A stretch of 64,000 bases of DNA from an uncultured delta proteobacterium (GTDB lineage: Bacteria; Desulfobacterota; Binatia; UBA9968). Shown in pieces: positions 7,993 to 48,212 of the stretch. The position numbers were made by a program, and so were the translations under genes. The notes below the pieces were generated by a model that had not been told where the DNA came from, did not search any database, and was given only the letters and a program-made list of their open reading frames with translations. Location of the stretch: positions 352,001-416,000 of the forward strand of contig CAWJZV010000030.1 of NCBI GenBank assembly GCA_963847445.1, written 5' to 3'. Each line of letters starts with the position of its first letter. Position 1 is the stretch's first letter.

Positions 7993-8892
7993 TCATTCAC
8001 CCCGTACCACCAGAACCGGATCGTCGGCGTGACGCACGATTTTTTCAGTGACGCTGCCGAGTATCCAGCGTTGGATGCCGGAGCGGCCATGGGTCGACAT
8101 GGCGATCACTGCGCCCGGCGCCGTCTGCGCGTAGCTGATTATTTCGTTGGCGGCTGCGCCTTCGATCGTTAGAACCGACACCGTCCGCACGCCCTCGCCA
8201 ACCAGAAAATCTTCTTTTACTTTGAGATAGGCGGCCGCTTCCCTGCGCGCATCCTCGCGCATCTCGTCGTAGTCGGGCAGGTAAGCTTCGCTGCTAACGT
8301 ACGCTCTCGCGGGAAACTCGAAAGCGCGAATCAGTGTCACCTCGACGTCAAGCGCTCGCGCCCAACGGCAAACGGTCGGCAGTATCTGCTCCGCCAGCGG
8401 CGAACCGTCCAGGGGGACGACGAGCGAATTGATGATCCGCTGCGGCGATGTCTTCGCCGCCGCCGCCCGCACCAGGAACAATGGATTGGTTGTGCCACGC
8501 AGCACCTTCTCGGCCACACTCCCCAACAACCAGCGCTTCGCCCCTGAGCGACCGTGGGTCGCCATGGCGATCAGGGTATCGCGCTCCTGACGGGTGCTTT
8601 CAAGAATGGTTTCCGCGGGTGTGCCGCGAATCATCCGGCACTCGGTCGCCGCGTGGGAGAAGCGCTTGGCGACATTTGCCAAATACTCCGCGCACTTCTT
8701 TTCCTCGGCAACGATGATGCTGTCCATCTGGCGGACTTTGTCCGGCGCCACATGGGTCGTCATCGCGCCGATATCGATGACCGACAGCAGCTCCACCGAG
8801 GTCTTGAATCCGGCAGCAAACGCCTCAACGTAGGGCAGCACCGCTTCCGCCGTTGCCGAACCGTCCAACGGCACCAGGATTTTTTTATACAT
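7993..8892 (-). CDS. Universal stress protein, tandem USP domains
   Basis: Two 'VPLDGS' starts and two 'THGRSG..RW.LGSV.EK' motifs; AGGAGG RBS. Confidence 0.92.
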   Translation of the reverse strand: MYKKILVPLDGSATAEAVLPYVEAFAAGFKTSVELLSVIDIGAMTTHVAPDKVRQMDSIIVAEEKKCAEYLANVAKRFSHAATECRMIRGTPAETILESTRQERDTLIAMATHGRSGAKRWLLGSVAEKVLRGTTNPLFLVRAAAAKTSPQRIINSLVVPLDGSPLAEQILPTVCRWARALDVEVTLIRAFEFPARAYVSSEAYLPDYDEMREDARREAAAYLKVKEDFLVGEGVRTVSVLTIEGAAANEIISYAQTAPGAVIAMSTHGRSGIQRWILGSVTEKIVRHADDPVLVVRGE

Positions 8893-9475
8893 CTTGGCCT
8901 CCTTGCCATTACCAATAGCCAAATATCGCTACGACTCCACCATGCCACCAACAGCTTTCCGATAAAAGCTCGGCTCGAATCTCAGGTCAGCGTTCCCCGC
9001 CGTAGATGCGGCGAGGAGCCGTTGCCTATAGAAATCGCGCCGGGCCGTGGTGGTCGCTTGCCGCAATCCTGGTGGCTGACTGCTGTGGCCCGGCATCTGG
9101 CCTCGACTGCGGGAAAACGAGGTAAGCAGAACAAATTCATTTCTGCGACAACGGCTGTGTACACTTGATCTGCCAGCCAATGAGCGTCCCCTTAGGAGAA
9201 TGACAGCCCGTCCGCCACCAACGCGGCTGCGCTCGACGATCTTGCCGATCACGTCCCGCCTCTTCGTATGCTCTGCCACGTCGCGTTACGACGCGATCTG
9301 CATGGCTAGGCATCAAGCTGGCGCCACGTTGAAGCAATTTTAAGAAGATCAAGTAATTCTAAGAATGGGAACGGGTTAAGGTCGCGTTCCTAAACTCTAG
9401 AGAGACTTACCGGGCAGTAACCCCATGAGTTAGCAATATCGCTCGCCAAACATGCGCTTGGCATTTACTTTGAGA

Positions 9476-9492
9476 TTGGCGCGCGGCTTGCT
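9476..9492 (+). promoter_or_regulatory. Putative sigma54 (-24/-12) promoter
   Basis: TTGGCGCGCGGCTTGCT = TGGC-N7-TTGC, about 60 bp upstream of ORF 9553 with AGGAG RBS. Confidence 0.55.
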
Positions 9493-9552
9493 TCGTTATA
9501 CCGTTGCGCAGTGAGAAACGACTAGCGACACGCAAAAGGAGATGCCCCGAAC

Positions 9553-9825
9553 ATGGCCCCGACAACCCCCTGGTCAGTAACCCCCTCAGGCAGCGAAAAA
9601 AACGGTTCGGCGAAGAAGAACTATAAGACGGTGCCGGAAAACTACAAAGTCCTATCCGACACCAAGTACCACAAGGTCGTTGCCGACCTGGAAGCCATTC
9701 TGTTGGATATCAGTACCGACGGCGTAGGCATCAACACACCGGACGGCAAGATTAGCGAGTCTTCCCTAAAGAACTGGGCCGCGTCCCTGCGAGATGCGCT
9801 GGAGACCCTGTCCAAGGCCCAGTGA
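9553..9825 (+). CDS. Hypothetical protein, 90 aa
   Basis: ORF with RBS and upstream sigma54-like motif; no family recognised. Confidence 0.55.
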   Translation: MAPTTPWSVTPSGSEKNGSAKKNYKTVPENYKVLSDTKYHKVVADLEAILLDISTDGVGINTPDGKISESSLKNWAASLRDALETLSKAQ

Positions 9826-10089
9826 ACCAGACCTCCTTCAAATATCATCGGACTCCGGATGCCCCCGCTGGTGGCTGACAGCGCGCCTCGGTGCGCGTGC
9901 ACTATCGATCCGGCGCAGAGAACCTTTCGCCGGCTAAGCAACCGGCAACACCTCGACGCTGTCCGTCTGATCCCCAACCTCCCCGATCTCCAATGCGCAT
10001 ATAGTCCGCGGCCAAGTGGCTTAGAGAAAGATCGCGCCCCGTCGGCAATCGCAGCCGCAAGCACCCCGATCCCTTAGGCGGTGATCGCT

Positions 10090-10965
10090 TCAGCAAAGCG
10101 CAACCAGCCAGCAGTATATGACCGCGGCTAGTGCAGTGGTGCCGCAGGCCCATTGGATACGCCACTCCGGTGCGCGCGGCGTAACCAACGCGCAGAGCAT
10201 TCCCAGTACGCCGCCAGCCAGGAGGCCGAAGAGATGAGCCCAGATGTCAACGCGCTGTCCATTGCTGCCGAGCATTCCGAGAAGGGCAAGAGCCGCGGCC
10301 ACCGGCAGCCAAGCGCGCCACCGGCTTATGGGGCTGCGGCGGCGCCGCGTCAGCCCGAGGCTGCCGAGCAAACCGACCGCGCCAAAAACCGCCGTCGAGG
10401 CACCGACCGAGACGTGGGGCGAGCCATGGACAAATGCGTTGGCAAGATTACCGCCCGCGCCGGCCAGCAGGACGAGAGCGCCACCGAGCCCCGCACCCAT
10501 CAAGCTGGATACGGCGCTGAGAAATAACGCAGCGGCGACGGCATTGCTCAGTACATGGGCAAAATCGGCATGGAGCGTGAGAGCGGTCACGGTGCGCCAG
10601 AGTTCACCTTGAAGTATCGGCGCAGCGTCGGCGGCACCGCGCGCAAACCAAGGCAGCGCCGCCGGCCATTGCACCGTGATGGAATAAAATATCAGGAGCG
10701 TCAGGCCGACCGCGACGCCGGCGACCAAGCTGCCCGACTCCATGGGCTCGCCTCGCTCCGCTTGTTTGCCCGGATTTTCGCGATCGTATGCCGACAGACT
10801 GGCAAGCGCTCTGGCTACCTCGGTTTCCGCCACGCTAAGAGCATAGCCGTCCGGTGTCAGCCGCAGGCGCGGCGACAGCCCTTGAGCGATGAGCACAAGC
10901 TCCCACTCCTCGGCCAAGTGGCGGTGCACTGTGACGCGCAGATTGGTTTGCGAATCTTGATTCAT
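10090..10965 (-). CDS. Rhomboid family intramembrane serine protease
   Basis: 'ELWRTVTALTLHADFAHVLSN', catalytic 'GASTAVFG', 'AHLFG'. Confidence 0.92.
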   Translation of the reverse strand: MNQDSQTNLRVTVHRHLAEEWELVLIAQGLSPRLRLTPDGYALSVAETEVARALASLSAYDRENPGKQAERGEPMESGSLVAGVAVGLTLLIFYSITVQWPAALPWFARGAADAAPILQGELWRTVTALTLHADFAHVLSNAVAAALFLSAVSSLMGAGLGGALVLLAGAGGNLANAFVHGSPHVSVGASTAVFGAVGLLGSLGLTRRRRSPISRWRAWLPVAAALALLGMLGSNGQRVDIWAHLFGLLAGGVLGMLCALVTPRAPEWRIQWACGTTALAAVIYCWLVALC

Positions 10966-35864: not shown

Positions 35865-35987
35865 AGTATTTCAAATTACAGATTCCAAATTCCAAATCGG
35901 TTTCCTTAATCTCATTCTTACTGCTACTTGATCCCCGTTGCCTCGACTTCGCTGCATTGACTCTAGAACGTATCTCGTGTTTTGAAT

Positions 35988-37863
35988 GATGGTGTGAAAC
36001 GCGAGCCATCAAACACAGATTCGACAAATCCCGACATCCTCGAAACCCTGCGCCGTTACTGGGGCTACAACGAGCTGCGACCGCTCCAAGAACAGGCGAT
36101 CCAGGCGGAGTTGGCGCACCGCGACTCGCTGGTCGTCATGCCCACCGGCGGCGGCAAGTCGCTGTGCTACCAGATCCCCCCCGCGGTGGCGAAGCGCACG
36201 GATATTGTCATCTCGCCGTTGATCTCGCTGATGAAAGATCAGGTCGACGGTCTGCGCGAATGCGGCTATCCCGCCGCGGCCCTTTACAGCGGCATGCCGC
36301 CCCACGCCGTGCACGAGACCGAAGCGCAGTTCCTTGCCGGGCGCTACCGCTTGCTGTTCGTCGCGCCGGAGCGCTTGCTAACGCCGCATTTCATGGAGCT
36401 CGCCGAGAAGATCAAAATTCACGCCTTCGCCATCGACGAAGCGCACTGCATCAGCCATTGGGGCCACGACTTCAGACCCGAATATCGCCGTCTGGCCGAA
36501 CTGAAAAAACATTTTCCCAAGGCCAGCCTGCATGCCTACACCGCGACGGCTACAGAGAGAGTCCGCCTCGACATCGCCCAGCAGTTGAAACTGCGCAATC
36601 CCGAGCTGCTGGTCGGCACCTTCGACCGGCCCAACTTAGTCTATCGCATCGTGCCGCGGGTCGACGCCCGCGCGCAAGTTTTGGAAATTCTGCAAGCGCC
36701 ACGCCAATCAAGCGGCGATCGTCTACTGCCTGAGCCGCAACGATACCGAGTCGATGGCGTCATTTCTCCAATCCAATAAAATTCGCGCGGCCCATTATCA
36801 CGCCGGCATGGAACCCGAGCAGCGCCGGCGCACCCAGGAAGAGTTCGCGTCCGAAGCCCTCGACGTGGTCGCGGCCACCGTCGCCTTCGGCATGGGCATC
36901 GACCGCAGCGACGTCCGCTGCGTCATCCACGCTGCCATGCCGAAGTCGGTCGAGCACTATCAACAGGAAACCGGCCGCGCCGGCCGCGACGGTCTGGAAG
37001 CGGAATGCGTGCTGCTGTACTCCGCCGCCGACGTGCTGCGCTGGGACTCGCTGATCACGCGCAATGCGACGGACGCCGACTCCACTCCGGAAACCATCGC
37101 CGCCTCGCGCCAACTGCTCGATCACATGCGCCAGATCTGCAGCGGCGTGCACTGCCGTCATAAGAAGCTATCTGAATATTTTGGCCAGGCCTACCCAAAA
37201 CCCAATTGCGAGGCCTGCGATGTCTGTCTCAGCGAAGTCGAAGGTCTCGCCGACGCGACGGTGACGGCGCAAAAGATCCTTTCCTGCGTCGCCCGCGTCG
37301 GCGAACGCTTCGGCATCGCCCATATCGTCGATGTCCTGGCCGGCGCCAACACCGAGCGAGTGCGCCGCTGGGAACACGAAAAGCTCAGCACCCACGGGCT
37401 GATGAAAGACACTGACCGCAAGTCTCTGACGAACATGCTTTACCAGCTCATCGACAATGGCCTGCTCGATCGCACCGATGAAGATTATCCCGTGCTGCGC
37501 TTGAACGACGCTTCCCGCGAAGTGCTGAAAGGCCAACGCACCGTCAAACTTCTCCAGCCGAAAATCAAAGCGAAGGTGAAGAAGACCCGCTACGACGAAC
37601 AGTCCTGGCAAAATGTCGACGAAGGTTTGTTTGAATCGCTGCGAGCGTTACGCCGCAAACTCGCCGATCAACGCGGCGTGCCAGCCTACGTCCTGTTCAA
37701 CGACGCCACCCTGCGAGATATGGCGCGCACGCGGCCGAGCTCCGCAAGCGCACTGCTGAATATTCGCGGCGTCGGTGAAAAGAAGCTGGCGGATATCGGC
37801 CAGCCATTTCTTGACGTGATTTCGAATTACTGTCGGGAGAAGCGGTTGGCGTTGGATTTGTGA
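35988..37863 (+). CDS. recQ: ATP-dependent DNA helicase RecQ (frameshifted near 36700)
   Basis: 'MPTGGGKSLCYQ', 'DEAHCISHWGHDFRPEY', 'QETGRAGRDG', Zn/RQC and HRDC regions. Confidence 0.96.
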
Positions 37864-38049
37864 GTCGGCAGAGCGGCCGGCCCTGAAAAATAGGCGATAC
37901 CGTCATGATCCGAGTGAACGTGAAGAGACAGTTGTCAGCCTAGAGCGGATTCAATGCCGCGGGCGTCCATCGGGCGCCGACGCGGTGGCTCGTCGAAGCA
38001 TCGCGTAATCGATCGCAGCGAAAATGCCATTGCACGAATGGAGGGCACG

Positions 38050-39003
38050 ATGGCCCGTCTGTACATCACCTATAGCTCGAGGGATCGCGCCCTGGCGTTG
38101 CAGCTGGCCGCGCAGCTCCGTGCCTATGGCCACCAAATCGCAATTGACGTCGATTCGTTGGTGCCGGGAATCGAGTGGCGGCGGGAGCTGATGGACAAAC
38201 TGCTGCTCTGCGACGGCGTCGTGGTGCTACTGACCGCGAACGCGGTCGGCTCCCCGTTCGTGTTCTCCGAGATCGGTTCGGCGCGTGCATCGTCGCGCCG
38301 ATTCCTCATTCCAGTGATTGTCGGCGACCTGCCTATTCACCCGGTGGTTCAGGACATCTACGCCATTCGCATTCCATCGAGCTCAACACGCGAAGTTCGA
38401 AAGGCCGTCAAAAAGATCGACGAGGCGGTTAAGGCTCACCTCCGACGCTCAGCTGCCCTGCTGGGTGTTACCGTGCCCTCAGGATACGAGCACCTGAGCA
38501 CGCAAGTGCGCCGCTTCTGCGAAGACTCTCCGTTCGAGCGCAACGTCTTCGTCATGATGAAATTCCCGGACAAGACGAGCATGCCGGCACGGCATATCCG
38601 GCTCCTCAACGATGTCTGGGAGGTCATCAGCTCCCAGGCGGCCCGCCACGGCCTCGAGGCGAGACGAGCCGACCTGCAGGGCTATCACGACCAGCTTTGG
38701 GAAAACATCTGTGTGTACATCATCGGTTCCAAGTATGGGATCGCGGTCCTGGAGGACGAGGTCGCCAGCGAATTGAATCCCAACGTCGCGCTCGAGTACG
38801 GCTTCATGAAGGCTCTGGACCATCCGGTCGCTCTCATGCGCAGCAGCGGATTCAAGCACAGCCGCGCGGATTTGGCGGGCAAGCTCGCCAACACCTTCGA
38901 CATCGTCGGCGGAGTGCTGCGAAGCGCGAGTCTACGGCAAGCGGTCGGCGCGTGGTTCAAGGAGCAGGGGCTAGCGGCCCGGACGCGGGTCACGCGCCGA
39001 TAG
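38050..39003 (+). CDS. TIR domain fused to a nucleoside 2-deoxyribosyltransferase-like (TIR-like) domain
   Basis: N-term 'YITYSSRD..D..SLVPG..W..SPFVFSEIG..IPV'; C-term 'NVFVMMKF..RAD..NPNVALEYG'. Confidence 0.75.
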   Translation: MARLYITYSSRDRALALQLAAQLRAYGHQIAIDVDSLVPGIEWRRELMDKLLLCDGVVVLLTANAVGSPFVFSEIGSARASSRRFLIPVIVGDLPIHPVVQDIYAIRIPSSSTREVRKAVKKIDEAVKAHLRRSAALLGVTVPSGYEHLSTQVRRFCEDSPFERNVFVMMKFPDKTSMPARHIRLLNDVWEVISSQAARHGLEARRADLQGYHDQLWENICVYIIGSKYGIAVLEDEVASELNPNVALEYGFMKALDHPVALMRSSGFKHSRADLAGKLANTFDIVGGVLRSASLRQAVGAWFKEQGLAARTRVTRR

Positions 39004-39011
39004 TCAGGACT
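38943..39011 (+). repeat. 69-bp diverged direct repeat, copy 1 (3' end of TIR gene)
   Basis: Gapless 58/69 match to 42361-42429 by manual alignment. Confidence 0.9.
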
Positions 39012-40492: not shown

Positions 40493-41983
40493 TTGGAAGA
40501 GACCGAGATAATCATTGAGCGAAATGGGGAGTGCGAGAAGTCGCACAGTAGCGAAACTCGTTACCGGCGCCTGTTCGAGGCGGCCAAGGACGGCATCATT
40601 TCTTCGATGCGGATACGGGACGGATCACCGACGTCAACCCATTCCTGGAAGACCTGTTGGGTTATTCTACACCGAGTTGGTCGGCAAGGCGCTCTGGGAG
40701 ATCGGCCCGGTCCAGGACATTACCGCGAGCCAGGACGCCATGCGCAACTTGCAGAAACTGGAATACATCCGTTATGAGAATCTGCCGTTGGTCACCAAAG
40801 CCGGACAGCAAATCCAGGTGGAGTTCGTGAGCAATGTCTACCTCGTCGATCGCTGGCGCGTGATCCAATGCAACGTCCGCGACATCACCGCCCGCAAACA
40901 GGCCGAGGAGGGTCTGCGGACGGCCCATGACGAGCTGCGGCTTCGGTGACGGAACTGCAAAAGCGTGACGAGACCATGAAGTCGCTCATCCGGCTCAATG
41001 ATCTGCTGCAATCGTGCACCACCAAGGCCGAGGCCTACCGGGTGGTGGAGCTGATGGCGAACGAACTCTTCCCCGGGGACAGTGGTGGGTTAGCCATTTT
41101 GCATGCCCCGGATCAAGATTTGGAGACGGTGGCGCGGTGGGGCGACGAGACCGCGCTAGTGCCCAGTTTTTCATTGGAGGATTGTTGGGCGTTGCGGCGC
41201 GGCAAACTCCATGAGGTCATCGATCGACAGGCGGGTTTGGTGTGTAATCATTTTACCCATCAACCGGAGATCGGCTACTTGTGTGTGCCCTTGATGGTCC
41301 AAGGCGGCACGATCGGCCTGTTGTGTCTCACCGGCGCGCCGGAAAAGGTGATCGGTTCGATCACGCGCCAGCGACTGGCCGTGGCCGCGGGCGATACGAT
41401 CAAGCTGTCGTTCCATAATTTGAAACTAAGAGAGGACCTGCGCGAACAGGCCATCCACGATCCGCTGACCGGCCTGTGCAATCGGCGCTATTTGGAAGAA
41501 AGTTTATCGCGCGAGCTGTATCGAGCGGAGCGCGGCAAATCGCCGCTCAGCGTCGTGATGCTCGACCTCGACAACTTCAAGCCCTTCAATGACACCTTCG
41601 GCCACGATGCCGGCGATTCGCTGTTGCGCCAGTTGGGCCAGATGCTTCACGATAACCTGCGCAAGAGCGATATCGCGTGCCGCTATGGGGGCGATGAGTT
41701 CGTCCTGGTGCTGCCCGATTCCTCGGTGGCGGACACCGAGCGCCGCGTGGAGCAGATCCTCACTCTGGTCACAGAACTATCCTACTCAGAATGGCGCTCA
41801 GACCAGACATCACGATATCGGCCGGTATTGCTGGCGCGTCCGAGCACGGGTTCACGGCCGCTCAGATACTCCAGGCCGCGGACAGCGCCATGTATGACGC
41901 CAAGCATGCCGGGGGTGACTGTGTCGTTGTCTACCAGGCGCACAGACAGCTTGAAACAGCTGAAGGTGCCTCGCGCAACATGA
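40493..41983 (+). CDS. PAS-GAF-GGDEF diguanylate cyclase (frameshifted)
   Basis: PAS 'RYRRLFEAAKDGI..IQCNVRDIT', GAF 'DCWALRRG', 'DPLTGL', I-site RKSD, 'RYGGDEF'. Confidence 0.88.
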
Positions 41984-42360: not shown

Positions 42361-42429
42361 GGTCGCTGCATGGTCCAAGGAGCAAGGGCTAACCGCCCGC
42401 TCGCGGCTCACGCGCCGCTAGTCAGGACT
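42361..42429 (+). repeat. 69-bp diverged direct repeat, copy 2 (orphan TIR-gene 3' end)
   Basis: Encodes VAAWSKEQGLTARSRLTRR* versus VGAWFKEQGLAARTRVTRR* in the TIR gene. Confidence 0.9.
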
Positions 42430-42653: not shown

Positions 42654-43217
42654 TCATTTCAGTACTGCATCGCGCCACCGCGTTAGAAATGGAACGAGAT
42701 TCACGAACCGAGCGAGAAGCGGGTTAAGGATTTCATACAGGGTGCTCGTCAGCGGATAAGGACGGTTGGTATCGACACCCAGACTCTGGATCACTTCGAG
42801 CGTTTGCTTGGTCTGATTACTGGGCGCGCCGAGAGACCACTCAGGACTGTGCTTCCAGTGATTGGCGCCAGCGTTTATCAGTTCGGCCACGGATCGACCT
42901 GTTCCATGCTTCGGACCGAGTGCGAGAGCTTTGCGCTTGTCAATCTGGCGTCGATTCATTGCAGCTGTGGCGTACGTTTGGCATGCAACGAATCCGAATC
43001 CGGTGATATATTCAATATGATCGAAGATTCCAAACGAATCTGGATCCCAGCTTGCCTGCGCCTCTTTGTCCTGGCGTTCTAGCCTCGTATCAACAAGTGC
43101 CGCCGCAGCCTCAAGAAAAAATCCAGATCGAAGTCTAGGATCATCATCTACTTCCGCACCCTTCGCCTTCGAACAGGCAAGCTCCCCTTTTGTGCCGACT
43201 CTGTGCGTCCGACACAT
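42654..43217 (-). CDS. Hypothetical protein, possible HEPN-like (NxxxKH motif)
   Basis: ATG 2 bp after res stop; helical, 'LINAGANHWKHSPEW'. Confidence 0.55.
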   Translation of the reverse strand: MCRTHRVGTKGELACSKAKGAEVDDDPRLRSGFFLEAAAALVDTRLERQDKEAQASWDPDSFGIFDHIEYITGFGFVACQTYATAAMNRRQIDKRKALALGPKHGTGRSVAELINAGANHWKHSPEWSLGAPSNQTKQTLEVIQSLGVDTNRPYPLTSTLYEILNPLLARFVNLVPFLTRWRDAVLK

Positions 43218-43219
43218 TG

Positions 43220-45918
43220 TTATGCTTCCGCTTTGTATTCCCTGAAGCCGCCTGTCAACTCCCGGAACGTCTTTGGTTTGTATTTCTCGAAGCTCGCTTC
43301 GTCCACGTAAACGAAGTCATATTCCACGTCTGCCTGCACCCGGTTGATGTCTTCACACCATTGTCGCAACCGTCGCATCTTCAGCGGCACGTCAAGATCT
43401 TCCTGCCCCTTGGTTTCGGCAATGACAATTCGCTTATCGGATAGCTTGACCAGAAAATCCGGGTAGTAGTTGGATATATCGCCGTCCGCTTTCACGTAGT
43501 CGAGCTTGAAATGCACCGCCAGATAATTCTTGGCGTAGGACACCACATCGTCGCAGTCTTCGAGGAAGCGCGCGAAGCGCAATTCAAGAGGGCTGTCTCC
43601 AATGATGCGGTTAAAGACACTCTTCTTCGGGATCAAGTAGCCCTGATCCTTTGCGACGAAGGGGCGCGTCTGTCGCAGCTTGATTGTGTCACGAATCTCG
43701 GCGTCGCCCTTGTCCTGCACGGTCAGCGCGTTGATTGCCTTTTTAAACGTTTCGATCAGGGTCTTGGTGGCGGCCAGTTCCGACAGATTGCGGAGTGTGT
43801 TGGGGGTGTCCAGGTCCACCGGGCGGTCGAACAGCTGCTCTTGGACAAATGTTTTAACCTTGCCATAGAGCACGTCGTAACCGCTGACCAGGCGCAAGTC
43901 CTTCATCACGGTCTGTGCGAAGAAACCGATCACGCTGCTGTAATCGGCAACGCCACCAGTGTCGAGGACAATGCTATGGTTCACCACGCCGGTAATGCTG
44001 TCTTTGAAAACGATCTCCCGCTGCTCCTCCTCACTGAACTGCCGGTAGGCAACGCGTTGATTCCCCAGCGCGCCCACGTCCAGCGCTGCCAGATTCTTAT
44101 ATTCCCGGTAGATCCTCGGCGTCAGCACGGGAATTTCAATATCCAGCGCGTCGATGTCCTTCTTTTCGTTCTCCTTGTCGATCTCCACCACCAGCGGCGT
44201 CTTAGGCTGCGTGCCTTCGCCCATCGGCTTGCGCTCCAGCACCACGCCTTCCGCCTGAATCGATTCCACGAAATCCATAAAAGCATTCGTGCCGACTACG
44301 CTAACGTATTCCTCCACGTCGGGGTACATCTTGCGCAGGCCGCGCCCGAGGGTTTGTTCAGGCAGGATGTTGCTCTTGGCGGAATAGGCGCGCAGCCCGA
44401 CAATGGTGGTGACGTTGCGCACGTCCCAGTCCTCTTTGAGCACCATCACGGAAATGATCGCCTTGTAAGGGCTGTCCAAGCTGTCAATCGCGTTGGCTTG
44501 CTCGCGCAGCTTATCCAGCTCTTCTTTGCTCTTGCCTGACGTTGATTCGGAAATCTCGCCGTTGCTCTTGGTGTGGATGACCAGCACGGCGTCTTTCAGA
44601 TCGGGGTAGTGGCCTTCAAGATATTCGGCCACCTCGTCGCAATTGCGGGTATCGGCGGTCATCACGAACAGGATCGCCTTCTTGCCGAGCTTTTCGTGTT
44701 CGGTGTAGCTCTTGCGCCACTCGATTACGCCCAGGTGAATATAGTCGGCGTATTTCTCGGTGTACTTGGCGCTCTGGCGCTCCACCAGCTTGGCCCGGCT
44801 CGGAGCATCGGGCAGGACCGGATGCTTCACCACGTTTTGCTTGATAGCTTCCACCAGCGGGTAATCGGCCACGGTCTGCACGAAGATCGCGCCGTTGTTG
44901 TGTTTGGGCGTGGCGGTTACGTCTACTTGCAGAGCGAGCGCCGCCCCTTTCTGCTTCAGGCGGTTGTGAATGTCCTCGATGGACTTGAACCACGCCATGT
45001 CGGGATCGTGGATATGGTGCGCTTCGTCATTGAGCACAATCAGTTCGTCGATGTCGCGCACGATCATAGCCAAGATCGACCTTGCTGTCGGTGGTTCCGC
45101 CGGTTGGGCGCGGCCCCAGGAAATAGTCCATCGTGTTTTCGTCGTCGGCGCGTGGGGATCGACTCATCGCCGGCATAAACGCGATGAATGTTCGTCAGGA
45201 AGATATTGCCCGTGTTGCGGACGACTGCGCACTTCGTCCTGTACGTGCAACGTCAACTGAAAGTCGTCGTGCCAGTTGCGGCCATCGAAGCCGTTGTCGG
45301 GCACAGACCGGATCCTCAAAGAAGATGCGCAGGCCGTCGAAGTCCTTGCGAATGCGGTCGAGCACGATGATGTTCGGCGCGATCACGAGAAAGTTGTGGG
45401 CGAGCTTCGAATCCGGCTCATACAGTTTGTGAAAGAAGCTCCACGCCAACACCAGGCTCAGAACCTTCGTCTTGCCCGTGCCCGTCGCCATCTTCACGAC
45501 CAGGCGGCGCCAGTCTCATCGAACAGGCTCGCCTTTGACTTCACCGGAACGGAATCGAATCGCATCAGGCCGAACTTGTCCTTGAACGGCGTACGCTCCA
45601 TCAAATAGATGATCGTCTCCAACGCCTCGCGTTGGGCGAAGAAGTATGGAACTCGTGCATCAGCGAGCCGGCGTAAGCGGCCGGCGTCAAATGTGGCTCG
45701 TAAAACCACCAGCGCAACAGGCTCTTGCTCGTCGTCGGTCGCGTCTTCATAGCCGCGATCGCGCCACGCCTTTACTTCCTTTCGCAGCATGCGGCACAAG
45801 TGGCGGCATCAGCTGATCGGCCCGCTTTTCGCGCAGACGCTTCGTCGGCGGGGAACCAGCGGATCGATGGATCGAGGATCGCGTGCGGGTCGGTCGGAAA
45901 GCTGGAATGCAGGGCCAT
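43220..45918 (-). CDS. res: Type III restriction endonuclease subunit Res (5' part heavily frameshifted)
   Basis: 'KMATGTGKT', 'NDEAHH', 'TATP', 'EQTLGRGLR', nuclease 'YYPDFLV..ETKG'; ATG overlaps mod TAA. Confidence 0.9.
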
Positions 45919-48212
45919 TACTTCTTCCCTCCCAGCGACACATCCACGATCGTCATCGTGTCATTGCCGAAGATGTCCACCACCTTCACCGCGATCTTCA
46001 CGCGCTTCCGTCGCCGTCTCGCGGTAGACGCGGTCAGTTCCAGCGAGCGATCCTTCTTCGTGCGGAAGCTCTGCCATTCGTTCTCGAAGATGTAGTCGCC
46101 CGTCCATTTCTCTTCCGATCTCGCCCGGGTTCAGCGCTTCGTCCTGTCGACGCGGATGATCATTCGCGCTTGCTCTCGAAATCGAAATCGACCGACCAGT
46201 AGTCGATCCAGTCCGTCCAGGTCTTCGTCAGCTTCGCGTTGTCACGACGCCGTTCTTGTCCTTGCTCACCTTGACGATCTGGCCCTTCTCCACGACGATC
46301 TTGCTGCCCTTCTCCTTGAGCGATTCGCCGCGGCGTTGGCGATGGATCCTGCGAGTAGAACACCGAGAAATCGGTAAGCTGCACCGCCACCGTGTTCCCT
46401 TGACCAGCGGCTTCACCTCGATGGCCGCCACGTCGTGGAAGACCACCTGGTTCTTCTCGACCGCCCGCTTGTCGAACACCTCGGCCGGGATGTACTTCGG
46501 CGGAATGTCGATGCCCTTTGGCTTTCGCCTCGTCCAGCACGTTGGGGAACAGGCCCATCTCGAATTCGAAGCCGAGCAGGTCCACCTTGGTGATGCGCTT
46601 CTGCCGGCATTCGAGGATGATCTCCTCGACGAACAGCCGCGTCACCGGCAGGTTGACGGGCCCGACCACCACCATCCGCCCCGCCTTCTTGCCGTGGAAG
46701 GTGGCGAAGCCCGTCGGTCTTCTCGGCCTGGTACGCCTGGAGGATCAGATCGAGAAACGCGGCTTCCTTGGCGTCGAGTTGTTGTCGCTGTTCTTCCTCG
46801 CGCAGGTTCGGGTTCACGCCGACGAATGCTGCCGTTCGTACTTGCCCAGGTTGAGGATTTCAAAGGCGCGGTAGTCCTGGCCTTCGGCCTTCAAGTTCGC
46901 GCTGCACGCCGATCAGGCGTTTGCGCGTGGTGTGTATGGCGAACTTGCCGAGATCGCTGACGATCCACTTGCGGCCCAGCTTCTCGGCCACCGCCGCCGT
47001 CGTGCCGGAGCCGCAGAAGAAATCGGCGACGATGTCGTTTTCGTTGGAGGAAGCGCTTGATGATGCGTTCGAGGAGGGCTTCGGGTTTTTGGGTTGGATA
47101 GTCCGATGTCTTTCGTAGGCTTGTGAGTTGATCGCGTGAAATATCAGCCCAAAGGTTCTGAACGGCATGCCCTTGCAGCTTCATCGAGGTATACTCTTTA
47201 GACGTGGCTCTTCCATTGTTTGGGGAAATCAATACGCCCTTCTGCGCATCAAATTCTTCCATCTTTTCTTTCGTACCGCCCAGCCGTTCGGAGGCGGACT
47301 TATATCCCTTGTACTCATAAATCAGATTCTGGCCGCTAGTGCCGGGATTAATCGATGCTCAAGTCGTGTATCTGCGCGACCGTCTTCATCGATGTTTGTG
47401 AAACGTGCTTTCGATATACTCCTCGGTATACGGCGGATCATTGTTGATTCCAGATGAAGTCATCTGATTTTGCGTAGAAAGATAAATCGTGTCGCGAATT
47501 CATTCGATTCCTGTGCCGATCATTGCGTGCGACGCGTCCGTTTCCAAACTAATCTCGATTCGTAAAATGCTTGATCTCCAAACACTTCGTCGAGCAACCT
47601 GACGAATGTAAACCGTTACTCGCCAATCGCAATGCACATAAATACTCCCATCCTCCGCCAGCAAATCGCGCATCAGGATCAGCCGTTCGTAGATCATGGC
47701 GATGAACGAATCGGCCCCTTGCCCCAGGTGTCGCGGTAGGCGATTTCTTCGAGGATGTTGGGCTTCTTGGTGAAGGTGTCGTCGCCGATTTCGATGTCCA
47801 TGCTGAAATCGGCGCCGACGTCAAAGGGCGGATCGATGTAGATGAGCTTGAGGCCGCCCTGCTTTTCGATCTCCTCGCGCAGCGGGCCGTTCTTCAGCGA
47901 TGAGAGGATGAGCTTGTTGTCGCCCCAGATGAGCTTGTTGGTCCAGCCCTTGAGCTGGCGGCCGCGCTCGTCAAAAACGCAATCCTTGTGGATCGCCGTG
48001 TCCTCTGGCTTCTTCGCGCGCGGCTCATCGACCTGCTCGATCACCTGAAACGGCAGCACGACATTGCAGACCTCGCTGGTCTTGCCGTTCCAGACCAGCT
48101 CCACCTCGCGCTTGTCGTCGAAGAGCAGGAAGCGATACTTGTCCGGCAGCGGCTTGTCGGCCTCCAGAAAGCGGATGATCTCTTGTTGTTCTTGTTCGGT
48201 CAGTCGCGGCAT
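45918..48212 (-). CDS. mod: Type III DNA methyltransferase Mod (many frameshifts)
   Basis: 'NKLIWGDN', 'IYIDPPF', '[14 protein letters not shown]', '[10 protein letters not shown]', C-term '[12 protein letters not shown]'. Confidence 0.9.

Follow-up and report, generated by a model that had tools for sequence, protein, structure and literature searches.

A single gene in a 64,000-nucleotide stretch of the genome of an uncultured delta proteobacterium (assembly GCA_963847445.1, contig CAWJZV010000030.1, positions 352,001 to 416,000; hereafter the window) encodes a 317-residue protein (P0001; 38050..39003, forward strand) in which an N-terminal TIR_2 domain is joined through a helical linker to a second flavodoxin-like domain of the TIR/nucleoside 2-deoxyribosyltransferase (NDT) class. 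This second domain, here termed the C-dom (residues 139-312, with the motif NPNVxxExG), appears to belong to a sizeable and well-conserved branch of that class which lacks a Pfam or PADLOC model of its own and often occurs in defence islands. Comparisons of sequence, predicted structure and genomic context suggest that the protein acts on its own in abortive-infection defence, with the C-dom as a putative N-glycosidase effector and the TIR domain as its trigger, a reading whose probability we place at about one half.

Protein architecture and affinities of the C-terminal domain

The open reading frame is intact, running uninterrupted for 317 codons from an ATG at 38050 to the stop codon at 39001-39003, and a Shine-Dalgarno-like GGAGGG (38040..38045, forward strand) lies 4 nucleotides 5' of the ATG. 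An alternative, longer frame opens at an ATG at 37954; all homologues begin with MARL or MARI and run collinear from the first methionine of the shorter frame, so 38050 is taken as the true start. At E≤1e-3 one search recovered 152 homologues, and over 100 of these are collinear proteins of 312-335 residues with 96-100% query coverage and 40-97% identity. The gene is under purifying selection, with ratios of nonsynonymous to synonymous substitution (dN/dS) of 0.06-0.13, similar in both halves, against orthologues in three other genomes (L001, L002 and L003). Given these dN/dS values and the number of homologues of the same length and architecture, it is not a chance reading frame. Its GC content of 62% matches that of the core neighbours, the composition profile dropping only in the variable region downstream, and a scan for promoters and terminators around the gene yielded nothing useful.

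The N-terminal domain (residues 5-110; 38062..38379, forward strand) is a member of the TIR_2 family (PF13676; E 2.7e-16, 60.6 bits against a cut-off of 28). A preliminary description of this stretch, made from the sequence alone, had drawn attention to a TIR domain with a putative catalytic glutamate in the motif FVFSEIG, and this residue is present as E74 (codon GAG, 38269..38271, forward strand). It occupies the acidic position of the S-x-[WFY]-x-x-x-[ED] pattern on helix C, which we take to be the catalytic position of TIR domains. In the 97 full-length members of the family this column holds glutamate in 26 and aspartate in 71, S68 is serine in 96, and G76 is also near-invariant. The PADLOC matches of the protein are confined to this half and are weak, the best being to Aga-TIR (1.7e-6), with ThsB at 0.003; the NCBIfam model ThcB4 likewise matches here with 29.1 bits against a cut-off of 220, and the sole PF10137 line for the window protein (12.7 bits) maps to this domain, not to the C-dom. 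A long linker helix, assigned by DSSP on the predicted model (residues 113-137; 38386..38460, forward strand), leads to the C-dom (38464..38985, forward strand), whose motif is present as NPNVALEYG with E249 (codon 38794..38796, forward strand) in the helix after strand 3. The intact frame, the two-domain layout and both motifs of the preliminary description are thus borne out by the frame itself, Pfam, the alignment and the model.

Folded alone from an alignment of 29 sequences, the C-dom gave an AlphaFold model with a predicted local distance difference test (pLDDT) of 93.5 and a predicted template modelling score (pTM) of 0.89. The model shows the alternating strands and helices of a flavodoxin-like α/β fold, with NPNVALEYG beginning the helix that follows the third strand (strand 91-96 and helix 106-117 in model numbering). 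VIA-align was used as a fold scan independent of Foldseek, against 48,161 PDB representatives, rows within one Z unit of each other being counted as ties. The model matched MilB (Z 12.5; root-mean-square deviation (rmsd) 3.0 with 134 residues aligned), the TIR domain of SfSTING (Z 12.0), 7M5H and three NDTs (Z 10.9-11.8), Rcl/DNPH1 (Z 10.9) and the TIR domains of Hydra TRR-2, TIRAP, SARM1, the IL-1R family, RPS4 and MyD88 (Z 9.9-11.3), followed by LOG/SLOG proteins (Z 8.2-9.3); the alignments to MilB, NDT and TIR structures cover 121-134 residues at rmsd values of 2.8-3.1. Foldseek returned the same families with E of about 1e-3, the filament structure of the SpbK TIR being among the matches. 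As scores within one Z unit are ties, the fold cannot separate TIR from NDT, and the model places the C-dom in the combined TIR/NDT class, outlined as the TIR-DrHyd-SLOG class in a review (PMC9503650). This per-domain check, which the preliminary description had proposed, agrees with the TIR/NDT-like affinity that it had assigned to the domain, as does the profile alignment to PF10137 considered below. With the whole two-domain model Foldseek retrieved only two-lobed Rossmann proteins (GlmS isomerase and EngA) at rmsd values above 12-20 and was uninformative.

At the sequence level, profile comparisons point to PF10137, the TIR domain of the CAP12 and PycTIR effectors. When the C-dom alignment (A2) was compared with 19 true PF10137 domains collected from genomes of the class to which the window belongs, hhalign reported a probability of 83.5% (E 8.4e-6, 113 columns) and laid NPNVALEYGF on RQNVIFELGY, glutamate on glutamate, and RAD-x-x-G on PSD-x-x-G, a result that supports a superfamily relation, not membership of the PF10137 family. 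At E≤0.01, 9 of the 29 C-dom sequences match PF10137 and 8 match PF05014 (Nuc_deoxyrib_tr), and one relative (P0197) exceeds the PF10137 cut-off (29.9 against 24.7 bits). In the window protein, residues 227-266, which span the glutamate motif, match PF05014 with E 0.0031 and 18.1 bits, below the cut-off of 28.8. The C-dom had no DUF4062 match in the Pfam scan, and A2, used as a profile against PDB sequences, found no credible match (best E 0.068, to PUF60). No model in PADLOC-DB 2.0.0 covers the whole protein or the C-dom, the best match being the Aga-TIR one on the TIR half; in a PADLOC scan of 70 relatives and related proteins the C-dom obtained only marginal PDC-S35 matches, the stronger matches falling on partner domains or on a true PF10137 protein encoded elsewhere on the same contig (L046). 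On the whole, the C-dom appears to form a branch of the TIR/NDT class that is divergent and uncatalogued, with the CAP12/PycTIR TIR domain as its closest family by sequence.

The C-dom is also the better conserved half of the protein, with a mean pairwise identity of 59% against 48% for the TIR half in the 97 full-length members. E249, the NPN triplet, E235-D236, N219, R272 and D274 are invariant in all 97, and the RAD motif (206-208) is kept in 95-96 of them; the pocket of the second domain is polar and deeply conserved. In the 133 representatives that cover the motif the glutamate is lost only once, to lysine in P0113, and this retention fits an enzyme better than a decayed sensor. Each domain thus carries the acidic residue behind the preliminary description's "dual nucleotide-cleaving" protein; that twofold activity is not established, the acid of the TIR half being aspartate in 71 of the 97 members.

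Domain partners, phyletic patterns and genomic context

An exhaustive profile-free search recovered 3,923 representative clusters at E≤1e-3, 810 of them at E≤1e-10. By our own count the best 150 clusters comprise about 121 that match the C-dom only, 25 that match the TIR half only and 4 that match both. In 79 of 138 representatives with a C-dom match, at least 90 residues precede the match and fewer than 90 follow it. Pfam was run on 59 proteins to identify N-terminal partners, and most of these have no annotated partner. Where one is annotated, it is a REC domain in three proteins (P0142, P0192 and P0196), TPR in two, and in one protein each a double zinc ribbon, an Fe-hydrogenase-like domain with Fer4, HEAT, Trypsin_2, AbiJ_NTD3 or CHAT, the CHAT protein (P0222) having a STALD/SLOG domain after the C-dom. 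A word-index search found no fused forms longer than 555 residues, a weak negative since the profile-free search lists a few proteins of 571-654 residues.

Two proteins, P0225 (E 1.8e-9 in PADLOC) and P0119, carry the N-terminal domain of PDC-S35 followed by the C-dom, and the PDC-S35 profiles themselves align, by their C-terminal part, with the PF10137 domain found in the L046 protein (E 1.4e-17). The TIR module of the window protein, for its part, recurs at 40-49% identity in two other architectures. In P0261 it is followed by a true PF10137 domain (74.6 bits). In P0166, where it is 49% identical over residues 1-137, it is followed by a C-terminus with two long hydrophobic stretches recognized by eye, which are probably membrane-spanning and may make this a TIR plus membrane-effector protein. 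The C-dom and PF10137 thus appear to be interchangeable in two architectures, namely behind the PDC-S35 N-terminal domain and behind this TIR module. Because effector-type modules fill the C-terminal slot behind this TIR module, we infer that the C-dom is the effector and the TIR domain the trigger. The preliminary description had envisaged that one domain might generate a signal or sense infection while the other acts as effector; the domain swaps favour such a division of labour, in the direction opposite to one of the options that it had offered.

Another N-terminal domain, unknown and of about 170 residues with the motifs DWAFA and HRWP, recurs before the C-dom in Bacteroidota, Chloroflexota and Clostridium, and copies of this type (L016, L017, L019, L020, L071 and others) adjoin GmrSD, Csx1, or a Metallophos and HATPase_c_3 pair. 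In three loci labelled Rhodocyclaceae, Azoarcus and Zoogloeaceae (L012-L014; about 8700-10783) the gene for the C-dom protein overlaps the stop of a GT4 glycosyltransferase gene, whose product weakly matches "GT4-conflict". This pair is conserved in the three genomes, and the C-dom protein bears a C-terminal extension of roughly 100 residues, helical by guess only.

The phyletic pattern of the family is patchy. The window's genome (G000; 7.19 Mb, 91.8% complete, 6.9% contamination) encodes one C-dom and has 16 TIR_2 matches. The C-dom is found in 3 of 61 related genomes, these being the window's own and 2 from among 30 further species of its genus, with none in the 30 genomes from other genera of the order. 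A sample of 401 genomes from across the phylum contained it in 2 (only 8 candidates per genome scored). The 20 species-representative loci are labelled delta-, Alpha- and Betaproteobacteria, Acidobacteriota, Bacteroidota, Chloroflexota, Actinomycetota and Clostridium, and an 81%-identical copy lies in an unrelated context in a metagenome-assembled genome labelled Alphaproteobacteria. Such presence and absence is typical of an accessory gene that moves horizontally. A C-dom protein of about 300-312 residues is also encoded on ten small enterobacterial plasmids (3.6-13.6 kb), and in the two plasmid records inspected only 3 and 6 genes are annotated in all, its own included. The plasmids are non-mobilizable and come from Citrobacter freundii, Salmonella and Klebsiella (for example NZ_OW967268.1, 1648-2586 (L049), and CP052530.1, 1067-1972 (L050)). 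Their hypothetical protein (301-312 residues) has the C-dom as its C-terminal half (30% identity, E 6e-17) and an N-terminal half with no Pfam or PADLOC match.

Defence genes recur beside members of the wider C-dom family. Fourteen of 62 neighbour proteins, in 9 of the 19 metagenome loci with usable flanks, match PADLOC at E≤1e-6, whereas none of 53 ordinary reading frames of the window, taken as a control, does so. The matches include a Csx1 CARF-HEPN protein (1.7e-101), DrmMI/type IIG restriction-modification (E = 0), PifA-like, RmrA/CapP-like and BrxP/SspD-like proteins, LmuB, methyltransferases, the candidates PDC-S05, S11, S15 and S31, and mad2 and ThsC-like proteins. Among the genome loci, GmrSD/HEC-06 (1.5e-157) adjoins the Clostridium copy (L020); the copy in L007 has a CHAT protein as its neighbour, that in L010 both a TIR effector and a PIN/Phd pair, and those in L009 and L017 transposases. 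Type III restriction-modification genes lie 4-9 kb downstream of the window gene. With the patchy distribution and the plasmid copies, this context makes a role of the gene in defence plausible, though the support is indirect.

No partner gene is conserved. In an all-against-all comparison of the reading frames of 20 genome loci and the window, no neighbour family was common beyond syntenic sister genomes, with two exceptions: generic REC domains, and the glycosyltransferase specific to the three Rhodocyclaceae loci. Neither a CD-NTase nor a Pycsar cyclase was found within about 10 kb on either side. The preliminary description had proposed this check of homologue neighbourhoods and had stated that no cyclase, ThsA, NLR or sensor partner is nearby. 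The absence of a conserved partner stands; a GGDEF diguanylate cyclase is nearby (40515-41983), in an insertion absent from the sister genome L002.

In the window itself, recQ lies directly upstream of the gene, preceded by ordinary genes for an MBL-fold protein, a flavin reductase, a BNR protein and a DUF72 protein. It is split by a frameshift here (35982-37863) and intact in L002 (627 residues). As a candidate partner recQ was rejected, being adjacent only in three syntenic sister genomes. On the downstream side, a 69-nucleotide direct repeat comprises the last 61 nucleotides of the gene and 8 nucleotides beyond (38943..39011, forward strand), and a second copy, 84% identical and apparently a relic 3' end of the gene, lies at 42361..42429 (forward strand). 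The pair bounds a 3.4-kb insert with genes for a single-domain response regulator and the PAS/GAF-GGDEF diguanylate cyclase, and no integrase was found within the segment. The distal copy is closer to the gene end of L002 than the proximal copy is, and it looks as if the insertion brought its own replacement 3' end for the gene. Because this insert is present in the sister genome L001 and absent from L002, and is not conserved elsewhere, the response regulator and the GGDEF cyclase were rejected as partners.

Further downstream on the reverse strand, a type III restriction-modification Res and Mod pair in several frame-shifted pieces (43220..48212; PADLOC REase_III 5.8e-20, MTase_III 2e-26 and 1.2e-23) provides context only. 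Immediately downstream of res, on the same strand, is a 187-residue reading frame (42654-43217) that neither Pfam nor PADLOC matches. L001 and L002 carry different sequence at this position, and the gene therefore lies at the edge of a variable region. The frameshifts that split recQ, the GGDEF gene (540 residues and intact in L001) and res/mod are either assembly indel errors or the marks of recent pseudogenes. On the same contig, about 154 kb upstream, stand two adjacent same-strand genes (L046; G000:C30:235098-238460). The first encodes a 329-residue protein with a true PF10137 domain (101 bits), a C-terminal half without assignment, and PADLOC matches to a TIR effector (1.5e-45), PycTIR (4e-36) and PDC-S35 (1e-17); the second encodes a TIR_2 protein with an FGE-sulfatase-like domain. 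The pairing of TIR_2 with PF10137 therefore occurs also as two separate genes.

Functional interpretation and its alternatives

In the mechanism that we favour, the C-dom would be the conserved catalytic unit, an N-glycosidase using Glu249 that most likely hydrolyses nicotinamide adenine dinucleotide (NAD+), as the distant CAP12/PycTIR TIR relatives do. The N-terminal TIR_2 domain would be the variable trigger, acting in infection sensing or oligomerisation, and NAD+ turnover by this domain too is possible. Once activated, the protein would exhaust the pool of NAD+ or of a related nucleotide and so abort the phage infection, with no requirement for a partner gene. The Swarozyc preprint states that TIR-class enzymes generally require oligomerisation for activity, and the TIR_2 half therefore probably provides regulated assembly or sensing. 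A homodimer prediction with two copies of the protein (alignment A1) gave a score of 0.00, which is no answer and counts neither way.

Several observations weigh against this interpretation. The protein contains no obvious non-enzymatic sensor domain, which leaves infection sensing unexplained, and the CHAT, trypsin and TIR partners of the C-dom are themselves effector-type modules. In TIR-STING and TIR-SAVED proteins the effector is N-terminal and the sensor C-terminal, a layout that would make the C-dom the sensor. As to affinity, no Pfam family reaches its threshold over the C-dom of the window protein, with PF10137 (cut-off 24.7 bits) giving no match there at all, and the hhalign probability for the link to PF10137 is not above 95%. 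The substrate could differ from NAD+, since MilB, DNPH1 and NDT score as high as TIRs against the predicted fold. The control for defence neighbours is crude and drawn from one genome only, so that the contrast is indicative and not a statistic. Moreover, defence-type neighbours accompany the combined TIR and C-dom form in no more than about 4 of 13 contexts, which are those of the window, of L007, of L010 and of L059 (the last with PDC-S15), the copies in L003, L004, L005, L006, L008, L053, L057, L058 and L063 lying among housekeeping or regulatory genes. Finally, the family was found neither in 50,697 phage records searched with tblastn nor in IMG/VR viral contigs, and hence there is no signal of a prophage moron.

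An unlikely alternative reverses the roles, with the N-terminal TIR as the NADase effector and the C-dom as a non-catalytic or slow nucleotide sensor, by analogy with SLOG in ThsA and STING in TIR-STING. Its signal would come from another system, from the protein's own TIR domain (making it a fused, self-contained Thoeris-like unit) or from the phage. The position of the C-dom C-terminal to effector-type TIR, CHAT and trypsin modules would suit such a sensor, as would P0222, which joins CHAT, the C-dom and STALD/SLOG, and the 16 TIR_2 matches in the genome could supply signals. The pocket residues (RAD, N219, E235-D236, NPN and R272-A-D274) are retained in 97 of 97 members or nearly so, as for a specific ligand. 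SLOG/LOG folds still reach Z scores of 8.2-9.3 against the model, although these lie below those of TIR and NDT. The review of the class describes inactive versions as nucleotide sensors and sensors as usually losing the glutamate (PMC9503650), whereas the C-dom keeps it in all but 1 of 133 representatives. Further, PF10137, to which the C-dom is closest in sequence, comprises effector NADase domains, and it is this family that the C-dom replaces behind the PDC-S35 N-terminal domain and this TIR module. The REC, TPR, zinc-ribbon and AbiJ_NTD3 partners are sensor or regulator types that leave the C-dom in the output position, and the predominance of aspartate at the acidic position of the TIR half also speaks against assigning the effector role to that half.

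It is similarly doubtful that the protein is a non-immune, accessory enzyme of nucleotide metabolism or signalling, resembling NDT, DNPH1 or MilB in a salvage, clean-up or regulatory output role, with the TIR as an assembly module. The metabolic enzymes MilB, NDT and DNPH1 are indeed among the top fold matches (Z 10.9-12.5), and 9 of the approximately 13 contexts of the TIR and C-dom form are housekeeping or regulatory. The REC-fused forms, the response regulators that adjoin the gene in the window, in L001 and in L003, the conserved pair of C-dom and glycosyltransferase genes in Rhodocyclaceae, and the stable position beside recQ in three sister genomes could be read in the same way. However, the response regulator of the window belongs to the insertion absent from L002, and a metabolic role predicts co-occurrence with a pathway, none of which was seen in the locus comparison. 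The C-dom is, moreover, very patchy in its presence (3 of 61 and 2 of 401 genomes). Conflict systems are indicated instead by its fusion to TIR_2, by the sharing of an N-terminal domain with PDC-S35 and by partners such as CHAT, AbiJ and trypsin, and defence genes are enriched beside family members relative to the control.

A variant on the defence theme seems less probable than either. Here the C-dom would be a new family of conflict effectors with a substrate other than NAD+, namely an N-glycosidase of nucleoside monophosphates, deoxynucleoside monophosphates or adenosine triphosphate comparable to MilB and DNPH1, which the product of its own TIR domain would switch on in cis or in trans, making the polypeptide a Thoeris-like signal and effector unit in one. 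Least probable is the toxin of an addiction or toxin-antitoxin-like module without an anti-phage role, which its own TIR or a small neighbour not yet recognised would restrain: the family is near-sole cargo of small non-mobilizable plasmids, beside a small helix-turn-helix protein, and a PIN/Phd pair adjoins L010, but no small partner frame is conserved across loci, the window gene follows recQ without a small frame that has homologues, and toxin-antitoxin and abortive-infection roles overlap to an extent that makes this hard to separate from the defence reading that we prefer.

Comparison with known systems

The literature and PADLOC contain no description that we could find of the C-dom or of the TIR_2 and C-dom tandem, although the supplementary cluster tables of a preprint survey of TIR signalling (10.64898/2025.12.03.692087) may list it; the survey states that stand-alone TIR proteins were explicitly set aside. 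The candidacy as a new defence system advanced in the preliminary description holds to the extent that neither a PADLOC 2.0.0 model nor the literature covers it. Single-gene defences with TIR or TIR-like NADases are already known, and "new defence system" is too strong a term.

Of the known families, the NDT superfamily (PF05014, clan Nribosyltransf), with DNPH1/Rcl and the cytidine monophosphate N-glycosidases MilB/BcmB, provides the best structural scores with the C-dom, but the window gene carries a TIR fusion, and its surroundings are not those of a salvage or antibiotic-biosynthesis pathway. For the TIR domains of CAP12 (TIR-STING) and PycTIR (PF10137, clan STIR), the profile comparison aligns the NV-x-x-E-x-G helix after strand 3 with that of the C-dom, and P0261 represents a sister architecture with TIR_2 before a true PF10137 domain. 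Relative to these the C-dom has the additional invariant motifs FVMMKF, RAD, LWEN, LED and R-A-D, and the window protein, unlike the CAP12 and PycTIR effectors of CBASS and Pycsar, has neither a STING nor a cyclic nucleotide monophosphate-binding domain and no adjacent CD-NTase or Pycsar cyclase. Thoeris is linked to the window protein by the N-terminal bacterial TIR_2 domain of the latter, with its weak ThsB/ThcB4 similarity, and P0166, with its two hydrophobic stretches, recalls the TIR-plus-membrane-effector Thoeris types of the same survey (10.64898/2025.12.03.692087). Unlike in Thoeris, no separate effector gene is conserved beside the window gene, the neighbours being heterogeneous. PDC-S35, a single-gene candidate in PADLOC for which the literature search found no paper using the name, has its N-terminal domain in common with P0225 and P0119; the window protein itself has no PDC-S35 match.

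In bacteria, plants and animals alike, TIR-class enzymes have a central place in immunity, and so far every newly described branch of the class has added either a new chemistry or another mode of activation. If the C-dom is an active effector, current annotation pipelines would be missing a family of immune genes, including the plasmid-borne copies in Citrobacter, Salmonella and Klebsiella. The nearest functional parallels are SpbK of B. subtilis and Swarozyc (DUF4062), each of which, like the window gene, is one gene combining a TIR-class catalytic domain with an accessory module and needing no partner operon. SpbK is reportedly a single-gene TIR NADase defence in which a non-TIR sensor, binding the phage portal, serves as the accessory part. 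Swarozyc is presented in its preprint as a single-gene TIR-like NADase defence with a conserved catalytic glutamate that depletes NAD+ on infection, its accessory part again being a non-TIR sensor of the phage portal. The window protein differs from both in that its only accessory part is another TIR domain, and this tandem of TIR and TIR-like domains would offer a compact model for the control of one TIR-class domain by another.

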